NCBI GenBank assembly: GCA_963676835.2
Contig: CAXXFF010000002.1
Span: 1,856,001 to 1,920,000 of the forward strand
Direction: 5' to 3'
Source of the DNA: Marispirochaeta sp.
Lineage (GTDB): Bacteria > Spirochaetota > Spirochaetia > JC444 > Marispirochaetaceae
DNA length: 64,000 nt
Shown here: piece by piece, positions 36,237 to 57,851 of the stretch
Layout of the letters: the number at the start of each line of letters is the position of its first letter
Position numbering within the stretch: the first letter of the stretch is position 1
Position numbers and translations under genes: made by a program
Notes under the pieces: generated by a model
Told to the model about the DNA's origin: nothing
The model's input: the letters and a program-made list of their open reading frames with translations, nothing else
Databases searched by the model: none

Positions 36237-36257
36237 TTTTTATCGTTCATTAATTAA

Positions 36258-36295: not shown

Positions 36296-36324
36296 ATTTT
36301 CTGTTTGAATTGTTTTCTCCGGAT

Positions 36325-39982: not shown

Positions 39983-40207
39983 TCGTTCTGCTTCTCTCTT
40001 TTTTCTGGGCGTTGTATGTGAAAACCACCTTTAATGGTGATTGAACTACCATGCGTCATAGTAGCTTTATCGGGTATATTGTACGTTAAAACTTGTGTAC
40101 TTGCAACAAAATGATGTATAATAGGCGTAAATTGTATACTCATTTGGGGTATTTTGTTTTAAAACAGGGGTTGAGGATGTCACAAACCCTTAAAAAAGGA
40201 GATTGTT

Positions 40208-40939
40208 ATGATGGAGCTTGAAAACAGAGTTGCACTTATCACCGGTGGAGCGAGAGGTATTGGTGCTGCTATTGCAGAACTGTTTGTGGAACGGGGAGCC
40301 GCCGTTGTTCTTGCGGACGTAAACAAGGCAACGGTTGAAGAAACCGCTGCAAAACTTCGGGAAGGCGGGGCAAAGGCTCTTGGTCTTCAGGTGGATATTA
40401 CCGACCGCAGCTCGGTTAAGGTAATGGTGGATGCTGCCATAAAAGAGTATGGAAAAATCGATATTCTTATTAATAATGCCGGTATTGCTAACTTTAAAAA
40501 TGCAATGGAAGGTACCGATGATGAGTGGGACAAGGTTATTCTTGTGAACATGACAGGTACTCAGAATGTGTGTAAGGCTGTCATTCCTCACATGGAAAAG
40601 GCCGGCTACGGCAAGGTTGTTTCCATCTCATCCATGGCTGCCAGGGTAGGTGGGTTAAAGGTTGCAACGGACTACACTTCTTCCAAGGCAGGAGTAATCG
40701 GAATAGCAAAATCCTGGGCCCGTTATGGTGCTTCAAGGGGCATACTTTCCAACGCCATTGCTCCGGGACCAACCGCTTCAGATATGGCAGCTGATAACTT
40801 TGATGTTTCTACCATGCCTCTGGGAAGAATCGGTCAGCCGAAAGATATTGCCTATGCGGCCCTGTTTCTTTCTTCCTATATGTCTGACTACATTACCGGA
40901 ATTACCCTGGATGTAAACGGCGGCCAGTATCTTCCCTGA
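40208..40939 (+). CDS. SDR family oxidoreductase
   Basis: TGGARGIG, NNAG, YTSSK. Confidence 0.9.
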   Translation: MMELENRVALITGGARGIGAAIAELFVERGAAVVLADVNKATVEETAAKLREGGAKALGLQVDITDRSSVKVMVDAAIKEYGKIDILINNAGIANFKNAMEGTDDEWDKVILVNMTGTQNVCKAVIPHMEKAGYGKVVSISSMAARVGGLKVATDYTSSKAGVIGIAKSWARYGASRGILSNAIAPGPTASDMAADNFDVSTMPLGRIGQPKDIAYAALFLSSYMSDYITGITLDVNGGQYLP

Positions 40940-41025
40940 TAATATGCCACACCATGACTGTCGTTTTATGATAGAATTGGGAGCTGTTTTTATACCTTTC
41001 TGATGAAAGAAGGAGTGAATTGGAT

Positions 41026-42345
41026 ATGAGAGTAAATATGCGGGAGAGCAAGTTTGACCGCAACGGTGTTGTGGAGAGGATGGTGGGAAGCACCCCGCTG
41101 CCCAAAATGATAAAGGTTCGGCAGAAGCTGAACGACGAGAAACTGAACGATATCCCCGGTGAGATCAAAAAGCAGATCAACCTGGATAAAATCAAGGCAA
41201 CAGTAAAACCGGGAATGTCCATCGGAATAACCGTAGGAAGCCGGGGTATTGCCAATCTTGCCTTACTGGTAAAAGAAACTGTAGCAGCACTGAAAGCGCT
41301 TGGTGCAGAACCTTTTGTCTTTCCTGCCATGGGAAGTCACGGAGGTGGAAATGCTCAGGGGCAGAAAGAGATGATTGAAGGCTTCGGTGTTACCGAAGAG
41401 TACATCGGATGTCCCATCAAAGCCACCATGGAAGTTGTTCAGATTGCTACCCTTGATGACGGCCGCCCTGTTTACCTCGACAAATATGCATCCGAGGCCG
41501 ATGGCTATATTCTTCTCGGCCGGGTAAAGGCTCATACCGCCTTCCGGGGCGAGTATGAGAGCGGAATGCTCAAGATGCTTGCTATCGGGGCGGCGAAGCA
41601 CGAGGGTGCACTTGCCTGTCACAGTCAGGGATTCCGCAAGATGGCGGAAAATGTTCCAGCCTATGGAATGGCTATGCTGAACAACTCCAACATGCTGTTC
41701 GGTCTGGCTATTATTGAAAATGCCCATGATGAAACAAACCGGATTATTGCTCTTACCAAAGAAGAGATACCGGTAGAAGAGCCTAAACTGCTTATTGAAG
41801 CAAAAGAGAAGATGGCTCAGATCTATTTTGATGATATTGATGTCATGGTTGTAGATGAAGTAGGTAAAAACCACTCCGGCGACGGAATGGACCCCAATAT
41901 AACCGGAAGCTACCAGACTCCCCAGGCTCAGGGACCTCCCAACGTATACCAGTATGTAGTTCTTGGCCTGTCCGAAGAGACCCACGGAAATGCCATGGGA
42001 GTCGGTATGGCTCATTTTACCACCAAACAGGTATTTGACGAGGCCGATTACGATACCATGTATCCCAACGCCCTTACTGCCCGGGTTGTTCTTGCGGTAC
42101 GGATGCCCATGGTTCTGAATACCGATAAGCTTGCAATTCAGGCTGCTACTTATGTGGTAAACGGTAATGGATACCTTGAGCCGAGAATTGTCCGGATTAA
42201 GAGCTCCAGTCATGTTGGTGAAATCTGGATTTCCGAATACATGCTGGAAGAGGCAAAGAAAAATCCCAATATCGAGATAATCGGCGAAGCTGAAGATTTT
42301 GATTTCGATTCAAAAGGTGAGCTGAAAGAGAAGGGCGGACACTGA
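41026..42345 (+). CDS. Lactate racemase (LarA)-like / DUF362-related putative nickel-pincer 2-hydroxyacid isomerase
   Basis: GSRGIAN, PAMGSHGG, RVKAHTAF, ESG..KM..IG..K, GKN.SG.GMDPNITG, HGNA.GVG. Confidence 0.75.
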   Translation: MRVNMRESKFDRNGVVERMVGSTPLPKMIKVRQKLNDEKLNDIPGEIKKQINLDKIKATVKPGMSIGITVGSRGIANLALLVKETVAALKALGAEPFVFPAMGSHGGGNAQGQKEMIEGFGVTEEYIGCPIKATMEVVQIATLDDGRPVYLDKYASEADGYILLGRVKAHTAFRGEYESGMLKMLAIGAAKHEGALACHSQGFRKMAENVPAYGMAMLNNSNMLFGLAIIENAHDETNRIIALTKEEIPVEEPKLLIEAKEKMAQIYFDDIDVMVVDEVGKNHSGDGMDPNITGSYQTPQAQGPPNVYQYVVLGLSEETHGNAMGVGMAHFTTKQVFDEADYDTMYPNALTARVVLAVRMPMVLNTDKLAIQAATYVVNGNGYLEPRIVRIKSSSHVGEIWISEYMLEEAKKNPNIEIIGEAEDFDFDSKGELKEKGGH

Positions 42346-42372
42346 GTTCTGCTCTGATTTTTGCTGATACTG

Positions 42373-42400
42373 AAACCCCGGCTAAACGCCGGGGTTTTTT
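42373..42400 (+). terminator. Rho-independent terminator
   Basis: AAACCCCGGC-TAAAC-GCCGGGGTTTTTT. Confidence 0.8.
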
Positions 42401-42409
42401 ATACCCTGC

Positions 42410-42616
42410 GTACCACAGGCCCGAAGGGCCGAGGAACGCAGGGCGGAGAAGCGTGGCTTTGCGGAGCAAAACGCGCGGTCCGGGGGTGTACCACAGGCCC
42501 GAAGGGCCGAGGAACGCAGGGCGGATAAGCGTGGCTTTGCGGAGCAAAACGCGCGGTCCGGGGGTGTACCACAGGCCCGATGGGCCAAGGAACGCAGGGT
42601 GGATGAGCGTGGTTTT
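42410..42616 (+). repeat. 78-bp tandem repeat (about 2.6 copies), structured and REP-like
   Basis: Units start at 42410, 42488 and 42566; internal hairpins GGCCC-GAA-GGGCC and TTTGC-GGA-GCAAA. Confidence 0.92.
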
Positions 42617-42729
42617 TAGTATATGAATACTATGAAATTAAGAATTGGATATCGGTTAACTTAGTCTTTTAGGTATTAATAAGCATACATGAATGGACGT
42701 GATGCTGGTCGAGAATCAGGTGGAAGAAG

Positions 42730-42802
42730 CGGACCGCACGTTTGCCTTCGGCAAGCCGCTCTCGTCCGCCCCGCGTCCCTCCTTTCAGTCCGGTACGCGG
42801 GG
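42730..42802 (-). repeat. Inverted diverged copy of the 78-bp element
   Basis: Minus strand CCCCGCGTACC...GACGCGGGGCGGA...TTGCCGAAGGCAAACGTGCGGTCCG aligns with the tandem unit. Confidence 0.75.
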
Positions 42803-42803
42803 G

Positions 42804-42836
42804 AAAAAAAACCCGTGAAGCTTTCGCCTCACGGGT
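42804..42836 (-). terminator. Rho-independent terminator of the TRAP operon
   Basis: ACCCGTGA...TCACGGGT with A8 on the plus strand. Confidence 0.75.
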
Positions 42837-42859
42837 CTTGAGATCATCAGAAGTATTCC

Positions 42860-44155
42860 TTAATCGATAAAACCGGCCAGCCTTGGCAGGAAGAGAACGA
42901 TTTCGGGGATGTAGGTAATTGCAAATACCGCAGCCATTTCCGCTGCAACAAAGGGCATTACCTTGGGAACCATTTTCTCTACTGAACACTTGGCAATGGG
43001 GACCGCTGTGAACAGACATACACCTACCGGAGGAGTGGTAAGACCGATGTTGAGGTTTACCAGCATGATAAGTGCAAAGTGAAGAGGATGGATTCCATAT
43101 TCCATTGCCAGGGGCAGCAGAATGGGGGTAAGCATGATAACCGATGCAGAGATTTCCATTACCATTCCCATAAAGAAGAAGAGAATGTTAACCGCAAACA
43201 GGAAGAGATACTTGTTTGAGATCAGGGAAGTAATGAAGTTTGCAACGTGCTCGGGGATATGCTCAATGGTAAGAACCATACTGAAAAGCTGGGAACAGGA
43301 TACAATCAGAAGGATTGTCGCACCAACTTTTCCCGCATCGATCAAACTGTCGATCATAAGCTTCATACTAAGGGTTTTATAGTAGAAAACACCAACCAGG
43401 AAGGCATAGAGACAGGCGATTGCTGCAGCTTCTGTGGGAGTAAAAATACCGGACAGAATACCACCGATAATAATTACAGGAACCAGCAAGGCTACGATTG
43501 AACGGCGAACTATTCCCGCAGCTTCCTTGAAGGGTATGCGCTCAGTTCTTTTGGGGTGATTGTACTTGATGGCATATACATACGCCAGAATCATAAGCGA
43601 GAGAGCAACTGCAAGACCGGGAAGGAAGCCACCCACAAAGAGTGCTCCAACTGATTCACCGGTTACTGAGCTGTAGATAACCATGATAATACTCGGCGGG
43701 ATAATCGGTCCGATTACTGAAGACGCCGTGGTTACCGCCGCTGCATATTCGGCTGAATATCCTTCCTCTTTCATTGCAGGAATCAGGATGGAACCGATAG
43801 CTGCGGTATCCGCAACGGCCGCACCGGTAAGACCTGCAAATGCGATACTTACAACGATATTAACCTGTGCAAGGGCTCCCCGAACACGGCCGACCAGCAG
43901 CTGTGCAAAGTTAACCAGGTCACGGGTAATACCGGTATGGTTCATAATGTTACCGGCAAGCACAAAGAAGGGCAGAGCCAGAAGAACATAGTTGTCTATA
44001 CCACCGAAGAGCTTGGAAGCGATTGCAACCAGAGGCAGTCCCTGAAAAAAGATCAGGTAAAGAAGTGGTACCAGTCCAAGTACAAAGGCGATAGGTACGC
44101 CGATGACAAGGAGAAAAACGAATAATACTACCATTATCTGTACTGAAATATGCAT
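42860..44155 (-). CDS. dctM: TRAP transporter large permease DctM
   Basis: LALPFFVLAG, GAAVAD, PIIPPS, TPTEA, TPPVG. Confidence 0.93.
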   Translation of the reverse strand: MHISVQIMVVLFVFLLVIGVPIAFVLGLVPLLYLIFFQGLPLVAIASKLFGGIDNYVLLALPFFVLAGNIMNHTGITRDLVNFAQLLVGRVRGALAQVNIVVSIAFAGLTGAAVADTAAIGSILIPAMKEEGYSAEYAAAVTTASSVIGPIIPPSIIMVIYSSVTGESVGALFVGGFLPGLAVALSLMILAYVYAIKYNHPKRTERIPFKEAAGIVRRSIVALLVPVIIIGGILSGIFTPTEAAAIACLYAFLVGVFYYKTLSMKLMIDSLIDAGKVGATILLIVSCSQLFSMVLTIEHIPEHVANFITSLISNKYLFLFAVNILFFFMGMVMEISASVIMLTPILLPLAMEYGIHPLHFALIMLVNLNIGLTTPPVGVCLFTAVPIAKCSVEKMVPKVMPFVAAEMAAVFAITYIPEIVLFLPRLAGFID

Positions 44156-44169
44156 AGTATACCTCTATC

Positions 44170-44685
44170 CTAAAAATCGTGTCCGCCGGAAAGAAGATAC
44201 TCTTTGTCATCTCCCTTCTCGGTAAGCAGGCCGGTGGTAAAGTACATCATGTGAATCAGCATGAACAAAGACCCGATGGGTATGTTCAGCTTAACCCAGG
44301 TCATCGGGATGCGGATGATCGCACCAAGCTGACGGCGGGCAACATATGCGGCTTTAAAACCGTAGATAATGACAACCACGAGGAACAGGATAATAGTGAT
44401 ATATCCTATTACAAGGGAGAGTTTTCTGAGTGCAGGTTTCATGCGGGTAATAAAAAATTCGATACCGATATGAGCACGCTCTTTCATTGCAACCGAAGCT
44501 CCAATGTATCCCATGCCGATCAGCATCCAGCGCATAAGTTCCTCATTCCACGAAAGGGACTGCAAAAAGACCCTGAAAAAGACGCCGAGAATCGCGAGGA
44601 AGGTTACCCCGAGAACGTACGCCAGCAGGATCCACTTGGCGGCTATATTGGTATAGTCGCTGGCTTTCTTCAAATACTGAATCAT
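44170..44685 (-). CDS. dctQ: TRAP transporter small permease DctQ
   Basis: WNEELMR, HIGIEF, 4 TM segments. Confidence 0.88.
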   Translation of the reverse strand: MIQYLKKASDYTNIAAKWILLAYVLGVTFLAILGVFFRVFLQSLSWNEELMRWMLIGMGYIGASVAMKERAHIGIEFFITRMKPALRKLSLVIGYITIILFLVVVIIYGFKAAYVARRQLGAIIRIPMTWVKLNIPIGSLFMLIHMMYFTTGLLTEKGDDKEYLLSGGHDF

Positions 44686-44737
44686 TCTGTTTTCTCTCAA
44701 TAAGTAAGTGTGGGAGACTCTTTATACAAGAGTAAGG

Positions 44738-44769
44738 GCAGTCCGGTCCTTTTGGGGACCGGACTGCCA
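44738..44769 (-). terminator. Intercistronic hairpin after dctP
   Basis: GGCAGTCCGGTCC-TTTTGG-GGACCGGACTGCC. Confidence 0.65.
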
Positions 44770-44808
44770 TATATCCTTCTACAGGATGTATTTAACTAAG
44801 AGGTGAGA

Positions 44809-45963
44809 TTAGCGTCTCCAGCCTGCAGAGGCTTCAGCGCGCTTAACATCTTCTACGAAAGCATCAACAAGTTCCGCTCCGAGTTCGCCCTTCAGGTAAT
44901 CGATAACTGCGGGCTGTGCAACTTCCTGGAACTTTGCCTTTTCTCCAGCTGTGGGGAAGTAAACTTCCATCTGAGCTGCAACTTCTTCGAACTTAACAAT
45001 GTTGGAAACCATTTTCTCAGCAGTGTTGTTAGCTTCTACAGAAAGACGGGCACCAGCAAGGAGAACCTGCTGTACACCGATGGGAAGGCTGTTGAATTTG
45101 TCAGCGTTCATTACCATAACGTTTTCAGACCATACGTGGCCGTCCATTGTCAGGTATTTCTGAACTTCCTGGATTTTTCCGAGGAAGATGGAAGAAACGG
45201 GGTTCTCTTCACCGTCTACAACACCAGTCTGGAGAGCAGTGTAGAGCTCGTTCCATGCGATGGGTACTGCAGATGCGCCGAGAGACTCAACCATTTTTAC
45301 GTATACGGGGCTCTGCATAACGCGGAACTTGATTCCCTTCATGTCTGCGGGAGTCTTGATGGGGCGTACGTTGTTGGTGAAGTTTCTCCAACCATTCTGA
45401 CCCATTCCGAGGTATTTCAGGCCGGTTTCTTTTTCCATGTTGTCCATGAGGTCTGCCCATACTTTGCTTTCCCGGAAGAAAGTAGTAGTGATGTCGTCAT
45501 TGGCGAACAGGTAAGGAATGGTGAAAATCTGGAAGGGAGCATAGAAAGTTCCCAGTGAACCGGTTCCGATGTTGATGTCCAGTGAACCGTTCTGTACCAT
45601 TTCACAAGTTTCGCGGTAGCTACCGAGAGATCCGGCACCGAAAAGCTCAAGCTGAACCATTCCGCCAGTCTGAGATTCTACGAAGTCCTTGAACATAACT
45701 GCCATGGCATGCTCGGGATCGGGTACGTTAGCTGATTTGGGCCAAAGTACGGGGTCGTCATAAGACATGCGCAGAGTAATGGGTTTTGAAGGCATTGTCA
45801 TGTCAATGAATGCTGGGATTGCGCCTTCAGAGGAGGACATTGCGGGGGCTGCTGCTGCAGGTGCTGCTGCTGCGGGTGCTTCCTTAGCGCAGGAAAAAGC
45901 CAGCAGTGACAGTGTTACCAAGAGAGCAATGGTGAGCTTTCCTAACCATTTTCCTTTTGTCAT
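44809..45963 (-). CDS. dctP: TRAP substrate-binding lipoprotein DctP
   Basis: Lipobox LAFSC, Ala/Pro linker, NGWR, FRVM, ELYTALQTGVVDGEEN. Confidence 0.92.
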   Translation of the reverse strand: MTKGKWLGKLTIALLVTLSLLAFSCAKEAPAAAAPAAAAPAMSSSEGAIPAFIDMTMPSKPITLRMSYDDPVLWPKSANVPDPEHAMAVMFKDFVESQTGGMVQLELFGAGSLGSYRETCEMVQNGSLDINIGTGSLGTFYAPFQIFTIPYLFANDDITTTFFRESKVWADLMDNMEKETGLKYLGMGQNGWRNFTNNVRPIKTPADMKGIKFRVMQSPVYVKMVESLGASAVPIAWNELYTALQTGVVDGEENPVSSIFLGKIQEVQKYLTMDGHVWSENVMVMNADKFNSLPIGVQQVLLAGARLSVEANNTAEKMVSNIVKFEEVAAQMEVYFPTAGEKAKFQEVAQPAVIDYLKGELGAELVDAFVEDVKRAEASAGWRR

Positions 45964-46245: not shown

Positions 46246-46923
46246 ATGAAAGATAGCGAACAACGCCAGACAAAGCATGAAATCTATACCACCCTCTTTG
46301 ACCGGATAGTGCACAATAAATATCCCGAGGAAACCTGGCTCAGGGAGGATATTCTTGCTGCAGAGTTTAATGTCTCACGTTCTCCGGTACGGAGTGTGCT
46401 GCGGGATCTCGAACAGGATCATCTCATAGAGATTCTTCCCAAACGAGGAGCCAGGGTATTTCCTTTTACCGCTGATGACCTTGAGGATATTTATGAGCTG
46501 AGGAGAGATCTTGAACTCCTTGCCATGAAACGCTCCGCCCACTCTCTCAGTATCCAGAGGCTCCTCGAGCTGAAAGCCGATATTCTCGGGATGAAAGGAA
46601 TAGTGCATCCTGTTGAGCATGCCAGAGCGGACAGCGCTCTCCATTCCTATATTATCGAATCCTCCGGCCGCCGGCGCCTTATTCTTATGCTTAAGCAGCT
46701 GTACCGGCTTACCCAGACTTTCCGGGAGCTCAGCCTTATAAATGAAACCTCACGTAATGCAACTATCGACGAACATATAAATCTGATAGATGCATTGTGT
46801 ATCAGGGATCTGGATAAAGCGGCAGAACTGTTAACAAGGCATATTGAAAACAGTAAAATTCGGGTGCTGACTCTGGTTATTCAGGGGAAAATGAAGGAGT
46901 CAGGCTCTAAGGTCACCGGCTAA
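46246..46923 (+). CDS. GntR family regulator (paralog of 37161-37817)
   Basis: VSRSPVR, FPFTADDLEDIYE shared with the paralog. Confidence 0.9.
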   Translation: MKDSEQRQTKHEIYTTLFDRIVHNKYPEETWLREDILAAEFNVSRSPVRSVLRDLEQDHLIEILPKRGARVFPFTADDLEDIYELRRDLELLAMKRSAHSLSIQRLLELKADILGMKGIVHPVEHARADSALHSYIIESSGRRRLILMLKQLYRLTQTFRELSLINETSRNATIDEHINLIDALCIRDLDKAAELLTRHIENSKIRVLTLVIQGKMKESGSKVTG

Positions 46924-47849
46924 ATAACATTCACCTCTATTGATGCTTTCTGCAATAATGTAACTGCCCTGTCTACTGTTTCCGAATCTGCTGCGGGAAT
47001 TGCATCCCCCGGGTTTCTGCGGCCGAGGTGTCCATATTTTTCTGTTCCAAGGGTATGGTGGGGGAGCAGATCAACCTGACTGATGTTTAAGTCTGAGAAC
47101 AGGCGAATCATAGCGTTCAGTTCGTCATCTGTGGTATTTATCTCGGGAATAAGGGGAATCCGTATTCTGATTTTTGTTCGGTACTTCCCCATGGCGGTTT
47201 GAAGGTTGTTAAGAATAACTGAGTTGGTTTTTCCGGTGTATTTTTTATGGGTAGCAGGAACTGCTGTTTTAATGTCAAAAAGCAGTAAACTTGCAGTTCG
47301 GCAGACTTCCTGCATTACATCCCATGCTCCATCTCCGCAGGTATCTACGGCGGAATGAACTCTATGGTCTTTCAATTTCTCAAGCAGGGAGAGGGTAAAC
47401 TCCGGCTGAAACAGTGGTTCGCCGCCTGAAAGTGTAACCCCTCCTCCGGATTCCTCGAAAAATGGTTTGTCTTTAATAAGCTCATCAAATATTTCTTCCA
47501 CGCTAACTGTTTTGCCTGCAACACTTAACGCATCTGTTGGACATTTTAATGGGGCTTCATGCAGGAAGAAATCGGAGGTTCTGGCTCTCTGAGGGATTAG
47601 TACTTTTCCTTCTTTGTCTTTTTTTACGCTTGCATTAACTCCTGTGCTGGAGTAGAGGGTGCAATCCGGGAGGCATAGAGTTCTGTTATACATCAGTTCC
47701 GGGAAGCTGTTCTGACTTTCCGGATTCGCACACCAGATACACCGGAGAGGACAACCTTTCAGAAAAATTGTGGTGCGTATGCCGGGGCCGTTGTGAAGGC
47801 TGAAAGTCTGGAGGGCAAATATGCAGCCCTTTGGTGTGCTATGTGACAT
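46920..47849 (-). CDS. Glycyl-radical-enzyme activating enzyme (radical SAM), variant
   Basis: GCPLRCIWCANPES (CxxxCxxC), SGGEP, VDTCG, FDIK, LLPHH; HNGPG instead of HDGPG. Confidence 0.92.
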   Translation of the reverse strand: MSHSTPKGCIFALQTFSLHNGPGIRTTIFLKGCPLRCIWCANPESQNSFPELMYNRTLCLPDCTLYSSTGVNASVKKDKEGKVLIPQRARTSDFFLHEAPLKCPTDALSVAGKTVSVEEIFDELIKDKPFFEESGGGVTLSGGEPLFQPEFTLSLLEKLKDHRVHSAVDTCGDGAWDVMQEVCRTASLLLFDIKTAVPATHKKYTGKTNSVILNNLQTAMGKYRTKIRIRIPLIPEINTTDDELNAMIRLFSDLNISQVDLLPHHTLGTEKYGHLGRRNPGDAIPAADSETVDRAVTLLQKASIEVNVI

Positions 47850-47858
47850 TCCTGCTGC

Positions 47859-50225
47859 CTAAAACTGCGACATTTCTGCCCTGGATATTATTTCGTTCTG
47901 AACTTCCATGCTCAGCTGGTGCCAGTTTGTCACGTAGGCGGCTACACGAATAAGCAGGTCCGGGTATTTTTCCGGGCTTTTTTGGGCATCCTTCAAAATA
48001 GATGGGTCGATCACATTAAACTGAATATGAAATCCACCGAGGCGAAAATAGGTACGGATAAGGTCTTCAAGGTTTTTCTGTCCGTTTTTTGTGGAGATCA
48101 AACCTTTGTTCAGCTTCATGTTCAGCAGGGTTCCGTTTATTGCCTTATGGTGAGGCAGTTTTGCCTGGCTGGATAAGATGGATGTTACCTCCCCCTGCTT
48201 AAGGTACTGAGATGGAGAGCTTGCATCCGACAGGGGTGCAGCCGCTTGTCTTCCGTCCGGGGTTGCCCCTACCAGCTTTCCGAAGCCTACATGAGAGGTA
48301 AGGCTGTAGAGGCTCACAGTGTAGAGACCTCCCCAGATATCCCTATAATCTTCTGCAGTGTCACAACAGAGATTGAACAGATTGACTGCAATGGTGTTGG
48401 AATTCTCCGAATCACTGCCGAAGCGGTCTGTTTTGTTTAAAAGTGTCTGCCGAAGAACCTCTTCATTCATAAAATTGTTATTGATTGTCTTTACCAGATC
48501 CTGGAGAGAAATTATCTGCTTTTCATAGACAAACTCTTTCAGAGCTGACAGTGAATCACATACCGTGGCGAATCCAACCATCTGCACACCGGTATGATAG
48601 GAAACGGCTCCGCCGTTGTTTACATCTTTGCCGCTTTGCATGCAGCCCTGCACTAGAAGAGATTCATAGGGTTCCGGCCAAAGATCCCGGTGAGCCTTCT
48701 GCAGGCAGGTAACTCCTTCAACAACGGAAGCGAAAAGAGAGGATAACTGCGCTTTAAAAGCCTGCATAAAAAGGGAATAGTCCGTGAGTTCCGCCGGTTC
48801 TCCCGTTGTCGGTCCCAATTGTCTCCCGGTGAGGGGATTTCGCCCGTTATTCAGGGTGAGTTCCAGGCATTTCCCCAGATTAATCAGTGCAGCATCTGCC
48901 CAGGTCCAGGTTTTACCCTGGACGCCGTATTCTACACAGCCGATAAAAGCCCATTCGCTTAAGGCGGTGTCTTCTGGTAGACCTGCCTCAATATACATTT
49001 TGCTTCCTATATGATAGTTGAAGAATTTTGGCTTGGAGTTTTCTGCCACCAGCGCCACCGAGGCACTGTAAAATGCAGGATCCATTTCCTCTGTCCAGAG
49101 AAGGCCGATATCCGGCTGATACAGATGGACTTTTTTCTCCGCTTCAAGAAAAAGAAAGGAGAGCTCATCGGTATCATCATTTCCGTTGGCAGTGAGGCCT
49201 CCCAGCTGAACCGGCTGGCCCACGGGAAAACCGCCATAGTTTCCAGCTGCAGCATTATTGTAAAGCTTGAGGATGTCGTTTGTTTTAAAGAAAAAGCTGA
49301 CCAGCAGATTCACCGCATGGTCTCTGTTCAGTTTTCCCCTGTCCAGGTCCCTTTGATAGTAGGGCTGCAGCATAGACGCAATCCGGCCCAGGGTAACCCC
49401 GTAACCGTTGGAATCGATATAGCAGATTACATGAGTAAGCCATATACTCTGCAGGGCGGATTCAAAGCTGTCCGGGGGATTCCAGGGAACCTTCCGGCAG
49501 TTTTCTGCAATGGCTTTCAGCTCTTCTGCCCGAGTGGTATCTGCTGTTTCAGACAGTGATTCTGCAAGATGAGCGTATCTTTCTGCGAAACTGCGCACCG
49601 CTCGGGTAATAATAAGCACGCTTTCATAAAACTCTGCGCTTTCCGGAGCCAGGCTGCTGCTTTTCAGATAAGTCTCCGCTTCGGAATCGAGACCTGAAAA
49701 ACCTTTCTTCAGAATCAGGGCATAGTCGGGCAGAAAGTGTCCGGTTCCGCAGGTAAGCATGTTTTCTGCAGAGAATAATCCCTCTTTCCGCATCTGGAGA
49801 ATCTGTTCCGGGATATCAGACAGCCCGCGGTCTCTGAGGGTTCTACCTTCCCACCATGGCAAAAGCTGGCGAAGCTCCTGTTTAACCTCATCTGAGACGG
49901 CGAATTTATCCCCCGGCCGTGTTTCGTAGCTGTCCAGTTCGTTAAGAATGAAATCGACTCCCCCTTCGGGAAAGATTGGTGCAGAAACCGGTTCCGGCCC
50001 GAGGTTTCCTGCCATAAGCTCCCAGGGTTGAATATAGATTGTCATTTTTTCAAGGATATCGCGAAGCGCATAGGCTCTGAGGAGAAGCGGTGATACTTCT
50101 TCATTTTTCCGGTAGGTTTCGGTAATGATTCGCGCCCGTTCGGAGGTGAGGGACGGTTTCAGCAGCCTGGAGAGATAATAATTACGTGTTTCCTGCAGAC
50201 GAATCTCATTTGCAAACCAGCTCAT
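47859..50225 (-). CDS. Glycyl radical enzyme (PFL2-type) homolog with Ala at the radical site (candidate alanyl-radical enzyme), 788 aa
   Basis: Cys loop GCVE, GATPDGR, NGTLLN, HIQFNV, RVAAY; the real start ATG overlaps the upstream TAA at 50225. Confidence 0.92.
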   Translation of the reverse strand: MSWFANEIRLQETRNYYLSRLLKPSLTSERARIITETYRKNEEVSPLLLRAYALRDILEKMTIYIQPWELMAGNLGPEPVSAPIFPEGGVDFILNELDSYETRPGDKFAVSDEVKQELRQLLPWWEGRTLRDRGLSDIPEQILQMRKEGLFSAENMLTCGTGHFLPDYALILKKGFSGLDSEAETYLKSSSLAPESAEFYESVLIITRAVRSFAERYAHLAESLSETADTTRAEELKAIAENCRKVPWNPPDSFESALQSIWLTHVICYIDSNGYGVTLGRIASMLQPYYQRDLDRGKLNRDHAVNLLVSFFFKTNDILKLYNNAAAGNYGGFPVGQPVQLGGLTANGNDDTDELSFLFLEAEKKVHLYQPDIGLLWTEEMDPAFYSASVALVAENSKPKFFNYHIGSKMYIEAGLPEDTALSEWAFIGCVEYGVQGKTWTWADAALINLGKCLELTLNNGRNPLTGRQLGPTTGEPAELTDYSLFMQAFKAQLSSLFASVVEGVTCLQKAHRDLWPEPYESLLVQGCMQSGKDVNNGGAVSYHTGVQMVGFATVCDSLSALKEFVYEKQIISLQDLVKTINNNFMNEEVLRQTLLNKTDRFGSDSENSNTIAVNLFNLCCDTAEDYRDIWGGLYTVSLYSLTSHVGFGKLVGATPDGRQAAAPLSDASSPSQYLKQGEVTSILSSQAKLPHHKAINGTLLNMKLNKGLISTKNGQKNLEDLIRTYFRLGGFHIQFNVIDPSILKDAQKSPEKYPDLLIRVAAYVTNWHQLSMEVQNEIISRAEMSQF

Positions 50226-51025
50226 TATTCTGTTCCTTTTTTTTCGGTATGTTTCGTTTCCCGGGAGGCAAAGAATTCTGCCAGCCTTTTTTGAGTATCT
50301 CCCGAAGCCATGGCGGCGGAGGAGGCTGCAGCTTCGGCAAAACACATCTCTGTCTCTTTCAGGGCTGAGGCAGTGTTTATGCACTGCTTTATCATGGCTA
50401 TGGATATGTGACTGTTGGCAGATACTGATGTATTGAACTGCTGAATGTGTTCGGAAAGGTCTTCTTCGGTCCCGTAAAAATTGATCAAGCCCGCAGCGAA
50501 GGCTGTTTCTGCAGAAATAGTTCTGCCCGTGAAAAGCAGTTCCTTTGCGAAAGGTGCCCCGGTTCTTAAAGGGACACGGAAAGTGCCTCCCCAGCCGGGA
50601 ATAAGCCCAAGCCCTGCTTCGGGCATGGCAAACCTGGCGGAAGTTTCGGCGTAGATAAAGTCGCAGGCAAGGGCAAGTTCCAGCCCTCCGCCGGCTGCGA
50701 TTCCCCGGACCATAGCCACTACGGGAATTTCAAGGGACTGCAGTCTATTAAATACTGCATGCCCTCTTTTTACCCAGGGGCGAATACTCTCATGATCTAT
50801 CTCCTGGAGGGCTTTCAGATTTGCTCCTACCAGAAAATACTTTGGTTCACTGCTTTCAATGTACAGAACCCTGATATCCGGAACTGCTGCAGCAGCCTTT
50901 TCTATGGCATTTTCCAGCATCTCCAGAGATTCATAATCAAGGGTCGGGGGCTTGCCTGGAGGATCAACGGATAAAAGAATCCGTCCGGTCTGGCCTGAAA
51001 TTTCAAGGCTGATCACTGTTTTCAT
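50225..51025 (-). CDS. Enoyl-CoA hydratase/isomerase (crotonase)
   Basis: GGGLELALACD and MPEAGLGLIPGWGG (both catalytic Glu present). Confidence 0.9.
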   Translation of the reverse strand: MKTVISLEISGQTGRILLSVDPPGKPPTLDYESLEMLENAIEKAAAAVPDIRVLYIESSEPKYFLVGANLKALQEIDHESIRPWVKRGHAVFNRLQSLEIPVVAMVRGIAAGGGLELALACDFIYAETSARFAMPEAGLGLIPGWGGTFRVPLRTGAPFAKELLFTGRTISAETAFAAGLINFYGTEEDLSEHIQQFNTSVSANSHISIAMIKQCINTASALKETEMCFAEAAASSAAMASGDTQKRLAEFFASRETKHTEKKGTE

Positions 51026-51035
51026 TATTGCTACC

Positions 51036-52577
51036 TCAGCTGAAAAAACGGGTATCCATGGTTTTCAGATTTGATGAGATAAGCGGGCGGAAATCCATGT
51101 TGGCGAGAATATCTCTCTCAAGATCTATGCCGGGAGCAATTTCTGTCAGCATCAGTTCTCTATTATGCAGACTGAAGACCGCCCGCTCCGTGACATACAG
51201 AACCGGCTGTTTACGCTTGTCTGCATAGCCGGCACTGAAAGTACGCTGGGCCACTCCGGAAACAAACTTCCTGATTTCACCTTCATGCTCTATGGTAATC
51301 TTTCCGTTACCGCTTGTGCATTTAAGCCCCTTTGCGGTAAAGGTGCCGCAGAACACTACTTTTCCGGCATTCTGGGTAATATTGATAAAACCGCCGCATC
51401 CTGCCAGCATACTGCCGACCTTGCTTGAGTTCACATTTCCGGCGCTGTCCACCTGGGCCATGCCCAGGAAGGCAAGATCCAGCCCGCCACCGTCATAAAA
51501 ACTAAACTGTGAATCCATGGGAATGATTGCTTCGGGATTATAGGCCATTCCGAAAACCACGCCTCCCGCCGGTCGACCGCCGATGGACCCCTGTTCGACT
51601 GTCAGGGTCAGCTGGTCTAAATAGCCATCTTCTGCTGCAACCGCGGCGACTCCGTCGGGAACGCCATAGCCAAGATTAACCACTGCACCGGAAAAAAGTT
51701 CCTCCGCTGCTCTACGGGCAATAATTTTTTTCGGTCCCGCCGGGAGGGGCGGAATGGTTCCCAGAGGAGTTTTGACTCCACCGTTAAAGGCGGGTTCATA
51801 GCTGTGGAGACAGGTCATTGTCTGTTCCGGGTCTACTACAATGTTATCTACGTATATGCCGGGGACAATTACCTCCCGGGGATTGAGAGTTCCCGGCTCT
51901 GCCAGGTATTTCACCTGGGCTATAACGGTTCCGCCGCTGTTTTTTACCGCCTGGGCAATGGCACGGGCTTCAAGCATCGGACCATCTTCCTCGCAGGTAA
52001 TGTTTCCTTTGAGGTCTGCTGTTGTGCCTCGAATAAAGGCTGCATCTATATGAAAGCGGGGAAAAAAGAGCCATTCCTCCCCCTTGATCTGAATTACCTC
52101 TACCAGATCCTCTGTTGTTATCGTATTGGTTTTTCCCCCCTCCAGACGGGGGTCGACATAGGTATTAAGTCCGATTTTGGTTATAACCCCCGGGGTTTTT
52201 CCTGCCACGGCATGATACATATGGGATAAAACGCCCTGGGGAAAGTTGTATGCTTCCACCTGATTGGACAGGATCAGCCTGCCCATGGCAGGGGACATGC
52301 CGAAGTGTCCGGAAATATCCCGTTTGACCAGGCCGGGGTGGGCGAGGAAATCAATTCCTGTCCCTTCCCTGTTGCCGATACCGGTAGAGTGGATAATGGT
52401 AATCCCTGAAGGAGTTGAATTATCCCGGTAATGCTCTCCCAGAGTCCGGAGCAGGAGTGAGGGTTCACACACTCCGCCACCGGACCCGTGAATGGCAAGG
52501 GTCATTCCGTTTTTAATTTTTGAAGCAGCCTCCATTGGCGTAAGCACTTTTGTCTTCATTCTTTTATTCTCCTCCAT
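51036..52577 (-). CDS. Family I acyl-CoA:acetate CoA-transferase (YdiF/propionate CoA-transferase type)
   Basis: YNFPQG, GLNTYVDPR, NLGYGVP, catalytic VEQG, GCGGFINI, YVTER. Confidence 0.9.
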   Translation of the reverse strand: MEENKRMKTKVLTPMEAASKIKNGMTLAIHGSGGGVCEPSLLLRTLGEHYRDNSTPSGITIIHSTGIGNREGTGIDFLAHPGLVKRDISGHFGMSPAMGRLILSNQVEAYNFPQGVLSHMYHAVAGKTPGVITKIGLNTYVDPRLEGGKTNTITTEDLVEVIQIKGEEWLFFPRFHIDAAFIRGTTADLKGNITCEEDGPMLEARAIAQAVKNSGGTVIAQVKYLAEPGTLNPREVIVPGIYVDNIVVDPEQTMTCLHSYEPAFNGGVKTPLGTIPPLPAGPKKIIARRAAEELFSGAVVNLGYGVPDGVAAVAAEDGYLDQLTLTVEQGSIGGRPAGGVVFGMAYNPEAIIPMDSQFSFYDGGGLDLAFLGMAQVDSAGNVNSSKVGSMLAGCGGFINITQNAGKVVFCGTFTAKGLKCTSGNGKITIEHEGEIRKFVSGVAQRTFSAGYADKRKQPVLYVTERAVFSLHNRELMLTEIAPGIDLERDILANMDFRPLISSNLKTMDTRFFS

Positions 52578-52604: not shown

Positions 52605-53909
52605 TTAGACGAACAATTCCGGCATGAATAATTTGGGAATGCCAAGGGTAATGGAGGGAAAAACAATAATAAGAACAAGAACCGCCAACATAGCCAGCAG
52701 GAATATACCAATCTCCTTAAGAGACTTCATGGCATTGATGCCTGCGATCTCACTTGATATAAGCAGGCAGAGTCCGTAGGGCGGAGTAACCAGACCAAAG
52801 GCCAGAGAGATAACGCCTACAATAGCGAAGTGTAGAGGATGGATTCCGACATGGGCGGCAATGGGTGCGAGCAGTGGTCCAAGAATGACAATGGCTGGAA
52901 CCGAATCGAGAAAGGTTCCGACCAGAAGGAAGATCCCGACGAAAATCATCAGCATCAAGGTTGGAGATGTTGTTATACCTCCAAGAAGGCCAACCAGAAA
53001 GTTTGGAATCTTATAGTAGGCAAGGACCCATCCGTATATCGATGCGGTACCAACGGCAAACAGTACAATCGCGGCAAGCTGCGCTGTATCCAGCATGAGC
53101 TGGATAAATTTATTGAACGAGACCGTGCGGTAGATAAACATTCCCAGTATAAGAGAGTAGATTACGGCAACCAGTGAAGCTTCTGTGGGGGTAACAAAGC
53201 CGAAAACTATACCGCCGACAATAATTATCGGAGTAAAGAGAGCGAGAATTGCTCCCTTGAAGCTGGCTACGAACTCTTTCAGGCTGAAACCGGATTCCCT
53301 CGGATAGCCTCGCTTGAGGGCGAAATAGAGCACCAGAGCCATCTGGAAGAGAGCGATCAATACTCCGGGAACAAAGCCGGCAAGAAACAGTCCGGCAACG
53401 GAAGTGCTCATTACACCTCCCCAGACCACCATGGTTATGCTGGGGGGAATAATGTTTCCCATAACTGCGGAACAGGCGGTAACAGCAACGGAAAACTGCT
53501 TGTCATACCCTTCCTTTTCCATTGCGGGTATAAGAACCGAACCGATACCCGCGGCATCAGCATTGGATGAGCCGGAAATTCCTGCGAAGAGCATGCTTAC
53601 TGCCACGTTTACATGTCCAAGACCCCCGGGAAGCGGTCCGACAATGGAACGGGAAAAGCGTATGAGACGGTCGGTTATCTTGGCTTCATTCATTACAACT
53701 GCAGCAAGCAGGAAGAAGGGAATCGACAGCAATATAAAGGAACCGTACTGCACCATCATGCGCTGAAGCAGCATAAGCGGGGTAACCCTCGGGGTTAATA
53801 TAAGAATCGGGATGACGGCGAAGGCCAGGGTAAAACTGACCGGAACGCGGAGTATAATAAGCACAATAAGTAGAGTGAACATTATGGCAGCAACAGTGGC
53901 AGCAGTCAT
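52605..53909 (-). CDS. dctM: TRAP transporter large permease DctM
   Basis: SGSSNAD, IIPPS, TPTEA, TPPYG. Confidence 0.93.
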   Translation of the reverse strand: MTAATVAAIMFTLLIVLIILRVPVSFTLAFAVIPILILTPRVTPLMLLQRMMVQYGSFILLSIPFFLLAAVVMNEAKITDRLIRFSRSIVGPLPGGLGHVNVAVSMLFAGISGSSNADAAGIGSVLIPAMEKEGYDKQFSVAVTACSAVMGNIIPPSITMVVWGGVMSTSVAGLFLAGFVPGVLIALFQMALVLYFALKRGYPRESGFSLKEFVASFKGAILALFTPIIIVGGIVFGFVTPTEASLVAVIYSLILGMFIYRTVSFNKFIQLMLDTAQLAAIVLFAVGTASIYGWVLAYYKIPNFLVGLLGGITTSPTLMLMIFVGIFLLVGTFLDSVPAIVILGPLLAPIAAHVGIHPLHFAIVGVISLAFGLVTPPYGLCLLISSEIAGINAMKSLKEIGIFLLAMLAVLVLIIVFPSITLGIPKLFMPELFV

Positions 53910-54460
53910 TTGTTGTTTTCTCCTTCATCCTTGGAATTTTCATTGTGATGAATGGTGTACGAATCAGACATGTGATGTTCCGATAGTCTCCGGGCAAAGA
54001 TATCTCTGTATAGTTGTTGCAGAAGGAAGAGCAGCCATGAGAATCCTGCAATCGGAACAGAGGCATAGAGAAACCCAAGATTTATGCCCGTGAGTTCTGA
54101 TGTCTGGATAAGCCCCCACTCTTTAAAGAAACGGTAGCCGTATCTTACGAATACATAGGTAACGGTGAAGGTCACAATGTAATAGATGATCTTCAGGAGC
54201 ACGTCGAACCAGACTGGAAGATTTTCACCGAAAATATCGATGAAAAAATGACGTGAATCACGAACTCCAATGATCGAGCCGATAAAGACCATCCATATCA
54301 ATGAAAAATTCGTTACTTCCAGGGTCCAGAAAAAACGGGGAATAAAGGGAATATATCTGCCGGCAACGGTCAAGCCGACTGCGGCGAGCAGTACGAACAT
54401 CAAAAAGATCAATAAGCCGGTAAGGAACCGTGAATAGAGATCGATAAGCTTAGAGACCAC
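53906..54460 (-). CDS. dctQ: TRAP transporter small permease DctQ
   Basis: WTLEVT, WMVFIG, HFFID; 4 TM segments. Confidence 0.87.
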   Translation of the reverse strand: MVSKLIDLYSRFLTGLLIFLMFVLLAAVGLTVAGRYIPFIPRFFWTLEVTNFSLIWMVFIGSIIGVRDSRHFFIDIFGENLPVWFDVLLKIIYYIVTFTVTYVFVRYGYRFFKEWGLIQTSELTGINLGFLYASVPIAGFSWLLFLLQQLYRDIFARRLSEHHMSDSYTIHHNENSKDEGENNK

Positions 54461-54481
54461 AGCATTGCTCCTTATATGGAA

Positions 54482-54512
54482 AAAGCAGGCGGAATTTACT
54501 CCGGCCTGCTTT
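54482..54512 (-). terminator. Intercistronic hairpin after dctP
   Basis: AAAGCAGGC...GCCTGCTTT. Confidence 0.6.
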
Positions 54513-54531
54513 AAGATTAGTTGGTTTCAGA

Positions 54532-55548
54532 TCAGTCCATGGACTGGATTTTCTCAAATATATCGAGAGCACCAACCTCTTTCGCATACTCCCGGACAAC
54601 AGGAAGCGCGCGCTCCTGGATTATCTTATTGTCAGCATCGCTCAACTCAATGACTTTCAGCCCATGATTCTTCTCCAGGTTGGCGATTATCTCCTGGGCT
54701 TCGGCAACTTCGGTTTTACGGTGCCAGCGGCCTGCATCAAGCCCTGCTTTAAGAATGGCGTCCTGCATATCCTGGGGAAAACTCTCCAGACGGGGCTGTG
54801 AGAAAGCGAGAATCCTGGTTGTAATCTGATGGCGGGTCATAACATAGTAGGGTGCAACTTCGTAGAACTTCATACCTTCCAGACCGGCGGGTTCATTCTC
54901 GAGGCCGTCTACAACGCCGGTTTTAATTGCGTTATATACCTCCATGTAATCAAGAGGAGTGGGGTTGACGCCGACAGCTTCAAATACCTTTGCATGCAGA
55001 GGCGAGCCCTGAACCCGCAGATCGATCTTTCCAAGGTCATCTACAGATTTGATAGGCTGATTAAGAATAAGGCTGCGGGCTCCGCCACCACCGTATCCGA
55101 TGAAGTTGACACCTTTTTCGATCATTGTGTTTCTGATCGGATCAAGGGCGCCGGCTTCAAGGGCGTTTTCCCAGTTTGACAGACTCTTGAAAAGAAATGG
55201 TGCATCGATAACCGGGGCGGTTTTGTCCCAGGTTGCAGCCCATGCGGGGGAAACAACGGCAAAGTCTACCGATACTCCCTGCATCATAAACTCAAGCATG
55301 TCTTTCTCGGTTCCGATTGAACCGGAATGGTGCAGCTCGAATTCGACATCGACGGAACCGTCGTAATACTCATTGAAGAGTTCGACAAACTTTTCCATGG
55401 CACGATAGTAAACGTGACCTTCAGGCAGCATAACGCCTCCAACGAGGGTTATCTTTTCCGGTGCAGCGCCTGAATCCTGTGCGCCGCCGGCAAACAGTCC
55501 CAGTGACAGTACCGACATAACCAGAACCAATACAATAAATTTTTTCAT
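54532..55548 (-). CDS. dctP: TRAP substrate-binding protein DctP
   Basis: Signal peptide, LRVQG (carboxylate-binding Arg), EVYNAIKTGVVDGLEN, KFYEV; RBS GGGAGG before ATG 55548. Confidence 0.92.
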   Translation of the reverse strand: MKKFIVLVLVMSVLSLGLFAGGAQDSGAAPEKITLVGGVMLPEGHVYYRAMEKFVELFNEYYDGSVDVEFELHHSGSIGTEKDMLEFMMQGVSVDFAVVSPAWAATWDKTAPVIDAPFLFKSLSNWENALEAGALDPIRNTMIEKGVNFIGYGGGGARSLILNQPIKSVDDLGKIDLRVQGSPLHAKVFEAVGVNPTPLDYMEVYNAIKTGVVDGLENEPAGLEGMKFYEVAPYYVMTRHQITTRILAFSQPRLESFPQDMQDAILKAGLDAGRWHRKTEVAEAQEIIANLEKNHGLKVIELSDADNKIIQERALPVVREYAKEVGALDIFEKIQSMD

Positions 55549-55592
55549 AGATCCTCCCTTGCGAATTGACTTCACGGCAGTTACCGTATTTA

Positions 55593-55609
55593 ATTGGAAC
55601 GTTACAATA
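55593..55609. promoter_or_regulatory. Putative LacI operator upstream of dctP
   Basis: ATTGGAACGTTACAATA; its exact reverse complement is at 57595-57611. Confidence 0.75.
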
Positions 55610-55790
55610 GAAACGATATCAGCCATGTTTTCAGCTGTCAAGAAAATAGTTGATATCAGCCGGATTTTGGGGTATAACAGGAAACCTGTGTCGATGTACT
55701 GCTGGTTTTAGTGAAATTAATTTAAAAACCTGTTATTTTCACCCCTAAGCCGGTTTTATCGTTCCAACTCTGACAGGCACGGCGGGAAAT

Positions 55791-56807
55791 ATGAAAAGAG
55801 GAAAGCGGGTTACTATCAAAGATATTGCAGAGCATGCGGGGGTATCAAAATCAACGGTATCGCTGGTTCTGCAGAACAGTCCACTGATTCCGGAGGCAAC
55901 CTCTGAGAAGGTCCGGAAATCCATTGACGCCCTTGGCTATGTCTATAACAGGGCGGCTGCCAACCTCAGAACCAAACGATCCCATATAGTGGGAGTTATT
56001 ATCTCTGATATCGGCAACCCTTTTTTCAGCGAGCTGGTGACCACCATAGAAAACAGCCTTGAGCCCCATGGGATTGTGGTAATGCTTACCAATATTGCCG
56101 AAAGTCCGGAACGGCAGCGCAAGGCAATTTCCACGCTTATGGAGCATAACGTGGACGGACTTTTCCTGAGTCCCGCGAGAAACTCAACCGTCGATGATCT
56201 TGGGCCCCTGAAAAACAGCTCCATTCCGGCTGTGTTTGTAAACCGCTATGTTGCTGATTACGCCTGTAACTATGTGGGCGGTGATAATATCCTTGGTACG
56301 CGGATGGCTGTGGAGTATCTGCTTGATCAGGGCCACCGGGAGATAGCCTTTATTGGAGGGGATGAGGGGTCATCCTCCCGGAAAGAGCGGGTACAGGGCT
56401 ATCTGGATGCTTTTGCAAAATATGGGATTGATCCCCCGGAGGGCTTGAATATACATACCACCGGTAACCGTAAGGGGGGGTACGCCGGGGTCCGTAGTCT
56501 GCTTGAGTCCGGAGTCCGGCCTACTGCCGCTTTCTGCTATAACGATGTTATAGCTCTGGGTGTTATGCTGGGGCTGGAATCCAAGGGGATTCATCCGGGG
56601 GGGGATTTTGCAGTTTTCGGCTTTGATGATATTTCCGAGGCGGAACTCTGGACGCCGTCTCTTTCTACGGTGGCGATATCTCCCGAGACTCTGGGAAAGC
56701 GTGCGGCAGCACTGATGATTGAGAAAATAGAAAACAACAGCACAAATGAAAGAATCCTTGTTTCTCCCCGCCTTATGATCCGCGAGTCTTCCGTGGGCAG
56801 AAAATAA
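55791..56807 (+). CDS. LacI family regulator
   Basis: TIKDIAEHAGVSKSTVS, LGYVYNRAAANLR, NPFF. Confidence 0.93.
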   Translation: MKRGKRVTIKDIAEHAGVSKSTVSLVLQNSPLIPEATSEKVRKSIDALGYVYNRAAANLRTKRSHIVGVIISDIGNPFFSELVTTIENSLEPHGIVVMLTNIAESPERQRKAISTLMEHNVDGLFLSPARNSTVDDLGPLKNSSIPAVFVNRYVADYACNYVGGDNILGTRMAVEYLLDQGHREIAFIGGDEGSSSRKERVQGYLDAFAKYGIDPPEGLNIHTTGNRKGGYAGVRSLLESGVRPTAAFCYNDVIALGVMLGLESKGIHPGGDFAVFGFDDISEAELWTPSLSTVAISPETLGKRAAALMIEKIENNSTNERILVSPRLMIRESSVGRK

Positions 56808-56844: not shown

Positions 56845-57576
56845 TTAATACATAAACAGACCGCCGTTCACATCAATGGTGGCACCGGTGGTAAAATCGT
56901 TTTCAATAAGATATTTGACCGCCTGGGCAATATGAATGGCCTGGCCGTTTCTTTTAAGGGGTGTATTTTCCCTGAAGGTTTTCATCTTTTCCGGGGTGGA
57001 AACCTTTTCATGGAAAGGTGTTTCTATAACCCCCGGGGCAACAGCATTGACCCGTATTTTCGGAGCCAGTTCAGCGGCAGCACCACGGGTAAAAGTATCG
57101 AGGGCTCCCTTGCAGGCACCATAGATTGTCGCCGACGGCGCGCCGTGCCGCATGGCAATACTTGTCATGTTGATAATAACCGGATCATCTCCTTTTTCCA
57201 GCAAGGGAACACAGAGGGAGGTTATTTTCATTGTTGAAAAAGTATTCAGAGAAAAGGTCTCTATCATAAAGTCCCAGTCGAGTTCGTTAATCGGCTGACG
57301 GTGAATAAGCCCTCCGGCATTGTTTACCAGAACATCCACCACGGGGAATAATTTTGCGCATTCAGCTACAAAGCGTTCACATTCCTCCGGTTTGGACAGG
57401 TCAGCCTGAATCAGGTGGGCTTTGCCGCCTTTAGCCTCCACATCTGCGGCCACTTTTTCAGCCGGCGCTTTCGATGAGTAGTAGTGAACAATAATTTCAT
57501 TTTCAGGAGCAAGCAGCCGTGCGGTGTCTGCACCAATACCCGTACTTGCTCCTGTAATAATAATTTTTTTTCCCAT
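56845..57576 (-). CDS. SDR oxidoreductase, resembles DEH (uronate) reductases
   Basis: TGASTGIG, NNAGGL..R, YGACK, PGVIETPFH. Confidence 0.85.
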   Translation of the reverse strand: MGKKIIITGASTGIGADTARLLAPENEIIVHYYSSKAPAEKVAADVEAKGGKAHLIQADLSKPEECERFVAECAKLFPVVDVLVNNAGGLIHRQPINELDWDFMIETFSLNTFSTMKITSLCVPLLEKGDDPVIINMTSIAMRHGAPSATIYGACKGALDTFTRGAAAELAPKIRVNAVAPGVIETPFHEKVSTPEKMKTFRENTPLKRNGQAIHIAQAVKYLIENDFTTGATIDVNGGLFMY

Positions 57577-57594
57577 ATAAGCTCCTTGAGAATG

Positions 57595-57611
57595 TATTGT
57601 AACGTTCCAAT
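57595..57611. promoter_or_regulatory. Putative LacI operator upstream of the SDR
   Basis: TATTGTAACGTTCCAAT, the same site as 55593-55609 inverted. Confidence 0.75.
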
Positions 57612-57851
57612 AAGAATGTACCCCATCAAGGATGATTTGTACAAGGGAAAAAACAGCGAGAATTCAATACAGGTGTGATGTAAAAGGAGGGAGGGCCGGG
57701 CATGCATAACGCGTCGTTTGCGCGCTGAGACGGTGCACCGCCCCGTCTCAAAGAAGGAGTGCCCTGCAATGCATCCCACCTGGAGGCGTTTTGGCCTGGA
57801 ATAAGGAGGCGGTGCAGTGCACCGCCTGTGCTGATGTCCGGCTTTTTGCTG

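Follow-up and report, generated by a model that had tools for sequence, protein, structure and literature searches.

The activase loop motif that holds Asp16 of PFL-AE is known as DGxG. In the available part of PMC9326890, this aspartate hydrogen-bonds radical residue 734 and so anchors it. Formation of an alanyl radical was demonstrated by EPR for the Desulfoscipio geothermicus enzyme DgARE (Fu et al. 2024, PMC11528403), and the accessible portion of a 2026 review accepts alanyl radical enzymes (AREs) as a class for which no function is known. AARE activases overwhelmingly retain their cluster cysteines (Fu et al. 2024, PMC11528403); the supplement of that paper aligns AARE activases in Figure S4 and gives 17 AREs in Table S1.

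Here we describe an activase and its partner enzyme in a 64,000-nucleotide stretch of Marispirochaeta sp. DNA (the window). Judged by sequence, the two are likely an added member of the class described in 2024, working normally. Like DgARE and DgARE-AE (Desulfoscipio geothermicus DSM 3669; PMC11528403), the pair combines an RVAAY enzyme that has the catalytic cysteine and belongs to the Ala clade with one adjacent radical-SAM activase. The window enzyme differs from DgARE in its loop end (VTNW, where DgARE has VALF) and in its pocket (Y275/L, G336/T, D444/N, Y640/F), and the window activase differs from the AARE activases of PMC11528403 in keeping 3/8 insert slots. The features of the locus are collected in Table 1.

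Table 1. Features of the activase, its partner enzyme and their surroundings (positions in the window)
Feature	Position	Strand	Basis
Radical-SAM activating enzyme (GRE-AE family), 309 aa	47849..46920	-	ORF, TIGR02494, predicted fold
NGPGIR loop; Asn20 = AAC 47792-47790, at PFL-AE Asp16 place	47775..47792	-	sequence, alignment
C33-x3-C37-x2-C40 cluster motif and Asn42 (PFL-AE Asn38 position)	47724..47753	-	sequence, alignment
GGEP SAM-binding motif, residues 142-145 (G142-G143-E144)	47415..47426	-	sequence
Reduced ferredoxin-like insert: C59, C63, Y66 (47654-47652), C103; slots 4-7 lost	47541..47675	-	slot alignment
Alanyl radical enzyme (ARE), 788 aa from MSWFANEI	47859..50225	-	42% identity to DgARE, clade
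Radical loop RVAAYVTNW; Ala763 (GCC) at 47939-47937; Thr766-Asn767-Trp768 mark subclade	47922..47948	-	sequence, alignment
Catalytic Cys430-Val-Glu432 (CxE)	48930..48938	-	alignment; CxE known from eliminases
Enoyl-CoA hydratase-family gene, same operon	50225..51025	-	same position in L001, L002
CoA-transferase gene, same operon	51036..52577	-	
TRAP transporter dctPQM, same operon	52605..55641	-	
GntR/FCD regulator, convergent, overlaps activase end by 4 nt	46246..46923	+	
LacI-family regulator, divergent from operon	55791..56807	+	
Short-chain dehydrogenase	56845..57576	-	

The activase has asparagine at the place of PFL-AE Asp16

The activase reading frame, which includes QTFSLHNGPGIRT, scores 297.9 bits against the curated profile of GRE activating enzymes (TIGR02494, cut-off 174.35) and falls under the curated cut-off of every named-function model (HpsH, HypD-AE, CutD, IAD-AE, BssD, HPAD-AE, PFL-AE and NrdG). 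Its predicted model has a mean pLDDT of 95, with residues 61-80 at about 75, and the top Foldseek match is E. coli PFL-AE (3cb8; rmsd 1.9 Å, TM 0.91 by target length). The predicted fold, the order of motifs and Asn38 agree with PFL-AE. As the preliminary description had claimed, the radical-SAM CxxxCxxC motif is intact (C33, C37 and C40, followed by Asn42); the GGE motif is described in the available part of PMC10267522. Departures from PFL-AE are the asparagine in place of Asp16, an insert of about 60 residues and the predicted substrate, L-Ala here and Gly for PFL-AE.

Alignment with E. coli PFL-AE places Asn20 at the position of the typical aspartate anchor of the DGxG loop, which it replaces, and its AAC codon in an NGPG loop was correctly read beforehand. 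The accompanying claim that this motif touches the radical loop of the partner agrees with the contact between Asp16 and the radical residue in the accessible text of PMC9326890; in the portion available of PMC10267522 we found no mention of Asp16. In passing the TIGR02494 cut-off and carrying an insert at the same place, the activase resembles the long-form GRE activases (HPAD-AE, IbsAE, CutD). Unlike them, it is without the two CX2CX2CX3C motifs, and its first motif is CX3C-spaced, like that of most ARE activases. Some members of NrdG, the class III ribonucleotide reductase activase, have NGxG at the same place; however, NrdG is short, insertless and acts on a glycine enzyme, and the window activase reaches 38.9 against the NrdG cut-off of 126.1.

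The partner belongs to a subclade of alanyl radical enzymes

A gap of 9 nt separates the stop codon of the enzyme gene from the activase start downstream, and the order of enzyme then activase is common to loci L001-L004, L028 and L113. In the partner, alanine (Ala763, in RVAAY) replaces the glycine of the RVxG[FWY] fingerprint. Among its 120 best homologues the radical site is Ala in 47, Gly in 72 and incomplete in 1; one of them (P0152, Ala762) is DgARE itself, which is 42% identical to the partner. With an identity of only 42%, the substrate of the partner probably differs from that of DgARE. The closest named relative, from a Marispirochaeta genome, is 85% identical. In a FastTree phylogeny of 104 enzymes, for which every second Gly row was omitted, the long Ala enzymes, DgARE and the partner included, form one clade (support 1.0). 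The partner lies inside a nested RVAAYVTNW subclade (support 1.0), whose sisters are L051/P0143 and a VAPW group.

By alignment, His163, Cys430 and Glu432 of the partner correspond to His164, Cys433 and Glu435 of glycerol dehydratase, the residues that take out water in that enzyme. All three are unvarying across the RVAAYVTNW subclade, and Asn20 marks a subfamily with an invariant active site.

Asn20 follows the loop end of the partner

To place Asn20 among related activases, we surveyed enzyme and activase pairs. A metagenome scan that admitted only Ala or Thr at the radical site yielded at least 127 stretches; pairs were scored where the two genes lie side by side on the DNA, in the scan stretches, four genome loci and the window. 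Omitted from the counts were L012 and L034 (Asp, with short RVAAY pieces), L016 (its Asp activase is 1.6 kb off), the duplicates L010, L137, L138, L143 and L144, and DgARE/DgARE-AE, for which the profile search returned no DgARE activase; L051 was entered by hand. Among the matches listed there were 16 Ala pairs, 7 with Asn and 9 with Asp. The Asn activases (window, L001, L002, L003, L004, L028 and L113) all adjoin TNW enzymes of the one RVAAYVTNW subclade; the Asp activases are those of L007, L013, L043, L050, L051, L054, L060, L078 and L119, three of which are near-identical. Asp was found at 41/41 Thr enzyme loci, many of them redundant, and in 14/14 Gly pairs of the PFL type, again among the matches listed. 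Comparison of 7/16 with 0/14 gives a nominal Fisher p of 0.007, invalid for kin; since the pairs are kin, Fisher tests were kept out of the evidence.

Asparagine is rare in wider comparisons as well. The 120 best homologues of the activase have Asp in 104 cases and Asn in 16, and a set of 225 homologues has Asn in 17, which fall into two supported groups, each including activases that adjoin TNW enzymes. On the best tree Asn requires 2 changes; the AU test does not reject a single clade (p-AU 0.354). A long-form pattern admitting either residue gave 46 matches in 34 of 151 Bacillota genomes, all Asp, and the strict NGPG pattern, run on 401 genomes of the window's phylum, matched the window's genome alone. 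Because it was seen only in the TNW subclade among PFL-type activases, Asn20 is a usable marker of one ARE sub-branch; its rarity and confinement suggest that Asn may be selected, not merely tolerated.

What Asn20 tracks is the partner's Thr766-Asn767 and not Ala763. Thr766, Asn767 and Trp768 occur in 23/23 subclade rows (2 of them duplicates) and Ala766 in 35/35 other Ala enzymes; among the matches listed, the activase has Asn in each of the 7 direct TNW pairs and Asp in each of the remaining 9 Ala pairs. Position 14 of the activase is acidic in 18/22 Asn rows and Gln in 11/11 Ala/Asp activases, in a column comparison that, unlike the pair counts, also took in indirectly inferred pairs. In this comparison no column cleanly separated all ARE activases from background; only positions 55 and 260 came near, both weakly.

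If Asn20 has a selected role, these links give the best hypothesis left, namely that it is a partner-recognition change matched to the Thr766-Asn767-Trp768 loop end, with a Gln14-to-Glu change possibly restoring the loop charge. The view in the available part of the 2026 review that loop sequence sets activase specificity would fit this proposal. However, with one or two origins of Asn, every subclade-wide residue co-varies equally and the loop-end and position-14 links are indistinguishable from shared descent; moreover, the reported contact of Asp16 is with residue 734, not +3/+4 (PMC9326890, available part), and the window activase itself keeps Gln14. On balance we consider matched recognition rather unlikely. 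We would give no better prospects to a broader version, in which NGPG activases and RVAAYVTNW enzymes form a co-adapted, single-function subfamily, Asn20 reads the Thr-Asn loop end and the spirochaete activases shed their auxiliary clusters stepwise (8, 6, 4 and 3 ligand slots). If true, this would offer a natural series for studying partner recognition and the role of auxiliary clusters.

Another proposal, made in the preliminary description, was that Asn co-varies with the Ala loop and that the change from Asp lets the activase take an L-alanine loop. The association holds in part: within the PFL type, Asn stands only beside Ala enzymes (7/7 direct pairs among the matches listed), and in the accessible text of PMC9326890 (S)-Ala binds PFL-AE poorly in simulation, Asp16 being the residue that bonds position 734. 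It is no rule for the class, however. Many Ala enzymes adjoin ordinary Asp activases, so that Asn is not needed for Ala; all the Thr enzymes counted above do so as well. Asp lineages, L051 and L043/L013/L060, are sisters of the Asn subclade and branch outside and beside it, so that Ala arose first and Asn afterwards. Finally, asparagine activases also serve glycine enzymes. A looser NGxG pattern matched 6 proteins in the same 151 Bacillota genomes, all short and without the insert, which we read as probably of NrdG type; 4/6 adjoin an RRTCGYL enzyme. The annotated NrdG of phage ICP1 has NGDG and lies beside an NrdD with RACGY, and Asp was found in 2/3 of the phage NrdG checked. NGxG in NrdG-type activases beside glycine enzymes indicates that Asn at the Asp16 place is compatible with a Gly partner, and the Asp anchor thus appears typical, not defining, for GRE activases. 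It had been asked whether NGxG is equally common with glycine enzymes; it is not within the PFL type, but it does occur in the NrdG type. As a general rule the alanine-accommodation idea is largely refuted, and we judge it very improbable. This removes the Asp-to-Asn change as a simple answer to how ARE activases accept an L-amino acid.

The activase is under purifying selection

Marginally less credible still is that the activase is in decay and has ceased to function. It is the operon's most diverged gene relative to L001 (63% identity, against 81-98% for the others), and a further insert cysteine was lost recently. Against decay, the frame is open, the core motifs are all intact and the model is confident. 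Between the window and L001 the activase has dN 0.27 and dS 2.38, the latter near saturation, and the ordinary activase of both genomes has 0.21 and 1.30; at about 0.11, dN/dS is not above that of the ordinary activase. The gene is under purifying selection, and nothing suggests release. The genome's two other activase matches, at 35% and 26% identity, have partners of their own.

That sequencing or assembly produced Asn, Ala or both in error is next to impossible: each residue is one base off its usual codon, but both recur in 7 other loci and in more than one codon (AAC or AAT for Asn), Ala is found in 47 of the partner's 120 best homologues, the contig of run X1, which may be the source of this DNA, has 0 differences across 46900-48200, and run X2, from another study, leaves the Ala codon unchanged, the Asn codon lying outside its coverage. 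The earlier argument that the changes are real is borne out by this recurrence.

The window's genome holds a second, ordinary pair (G000:C2:963304-966524) that consists of a Gly enzyme with KVAGY, Lys standing for the fingerprint Arg, and an eight-cysteine DGPG activase.

Cysteine loss in the ferredoxin-like insert

Two CX2CX2CX3C-type motifs (eight cysteines) serve two auxiliary [4Fe-4S] clusters, and the window activase fills 3/8 slots, which read C C Y G D L A C. The three insert cysteines reported earlier are confirmed as C59, C63 and C103. All eight slots are kept in 6 of the 17 Asn activases and six slots in 2; another 8 retain slots 1, 2, 3 and 8, and the window's retains 1, 2 and 8. 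Those of L003, L004 and L028 retain eight or more cysteines. Most of the same slots are missing from 2/73 Asp activases, and the L069 and L158 pairs have a short insert with zero cysteines. Given that six Asn activases keep all slots and two Asp activases have lost most, cysteine loss is later than, and independent of, Asn.

Position 66, Tyr in the window, is Cys in the ten nearest reduced-insert relatives (P0002-P0008, P0020, P0025 and L002). Run X2 reads T>C at 47653, giving Cys for Tyr66 (one contig, depth 2), and on this reading the state with three rather than four insert cysteines is probably strain-level. Two-cluster ferredoxins bind one cluster through slots 1-3 and 8 and the other through slots 4-7. 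Applied to the slot pattern, this assignment leaves close relatives with the full ligand set of a single cluster and suggests that several spirochaete-type members have lost one predicted Fe-S site and that the other is short of one ligand in this strain.

In the portion available of PMC10239695, IbsAE and HPAD-AE can install the radical in the absence of auxiliary clusters, and HPAD-AE without its ferredoxin domain is said, second-hand, to yield a short-lived radical; the latter suggests that the loss may have consequences. Activases that naturally carry two auxiliary sites, one, or part of one bear on the role of these clusters. Neither the Asn/NGxG/NGPG marker nor stepwise cysteine loss appears in the main texts searched (Fu et al. 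2024 JACS and the available part of the 2026 review), although the supplement of Fu et al. may show them, along with the subclade itself. Literature searches for the motif also found nothing on it in the papers listed.

In most ARE activases, whether they have Asn or Asp, the first insert motif (window 47661-47675) has the spacing C-x3-C-x2-C, as opposed to C-x2-C-x2-C. The same spacing is seen in some activases without a known partner.

Proposed mechanism

Taken jointly, the observations are probably best explained by an activase that abstracts the alpha-hydrogen of Ala763 in the upstream ARE, with Asn20 as one sub-branch's Asp-like anchor and an insert that has separately lost one predicted Fe-S site and part of the other. 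The activase is predicted to cleave SAM and would take the alpha-hydrogen off Ala763. By analogy with DgARE, the resulting alanyl radical would then be passed to Cys430. The side-chain carbonyl of Asn20 could accept a hydrogen bond from the backbone NH of the radical residue, as PFL-AE suggests for Asp16, and the auxiliary clusters, to go by other activases, may be dispensable for radical installation. Counting against this explanation, Asn is very rare among PFL-type activases and was seen there in one subclade only, and NrdG is a remote relative that acts on another kind of partner.

The least certain step is the reaction itself. The match of His163, Cys430 and Glu432 and the TRAP, CoA-transferase and enoyl-CoA hydratase neighbours lead to a best guess, in which the partner would break a C-O bond of a hydroxylated organic or sugar acid imported by the TRAP system. 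The kind of system is not surprising and the result is useful to specialists; the compact operon for uptake and breakdown narrows the substrate search for alanyl radical enzymes.

Operon and neighbourhood

Parts of this neighbourhood recur elsewhere. The L003 enzyme has an orthologue-like TRAP copy (DctM 67%, DctP 49%) and an enolase-family gene in its vicinity. In L005, whose sequence stops short of the radical loop, a homologue of the short-chain dehydrogenase (74.5% identical) immediately precedes a related enzyme gene. A scan of the locus for promoters and terminators gave nothing usable.

Relative to L001, dS across window 46246-52577 is 1.3-2.4 in the CoA-transferase, hydratase, ARE, activase and GntR genes, compared with 0.3-0.5 in the TRAP genes alongside; the core block may have recombined, or the transporter genes may have a biased codon usage. 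The operon sits inside a large catabolic island (window 35265-45963 and 56845-63038) with a second TRAP system, dehydrogenases and a fused E1 alpha-beta gene, together with an inositol monophosphatase-family gene, an epimerase, an FGGY kinase and a split transketolase.

Other radical enzyme loci

The activases of threonyl radical enzymes (L008, L011, L014, L017, L021 and other Thr loci among the matches listed) have the loop signature GSFVDG[YWHF]G. Among the matches listed, Gly16 is found in 16/18, Phe18 in 18/18 and Val19 in 17/18, and there is mostly an aromatic residue or His where 188/188 background rows have Pro. This loop is a better candidate than Asn for side-chain accommodation, though it represents one clade.

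In L016 (2449-7447), a putative transposase-like frame lies between an Ala enzyme and its Asp activase, and the Ala enzyme stands in tandem with a glycine enzyme. Three stand-alone frames of 59-77 residues (L012:4949-5125, minus strand; L034:1474-1671, minus strand; L055:4884-5114, plus strand) carry RVAAY and then continue as a glycine-type loop (SAFF, SAYF and SDYF); two directly precede an Asp activase and one follows an intact Gly enzyme. They may be remnants of genes, proteins of a spare-part kind or cases of independent Gly-to-Ala change. Finally, Ser replaces PFL-AE Asn38, the second peptide anchor, in L007:5217-6179, P0265, P0268, P0272 and P0277, the first of which adjoins an Ala enzyme.
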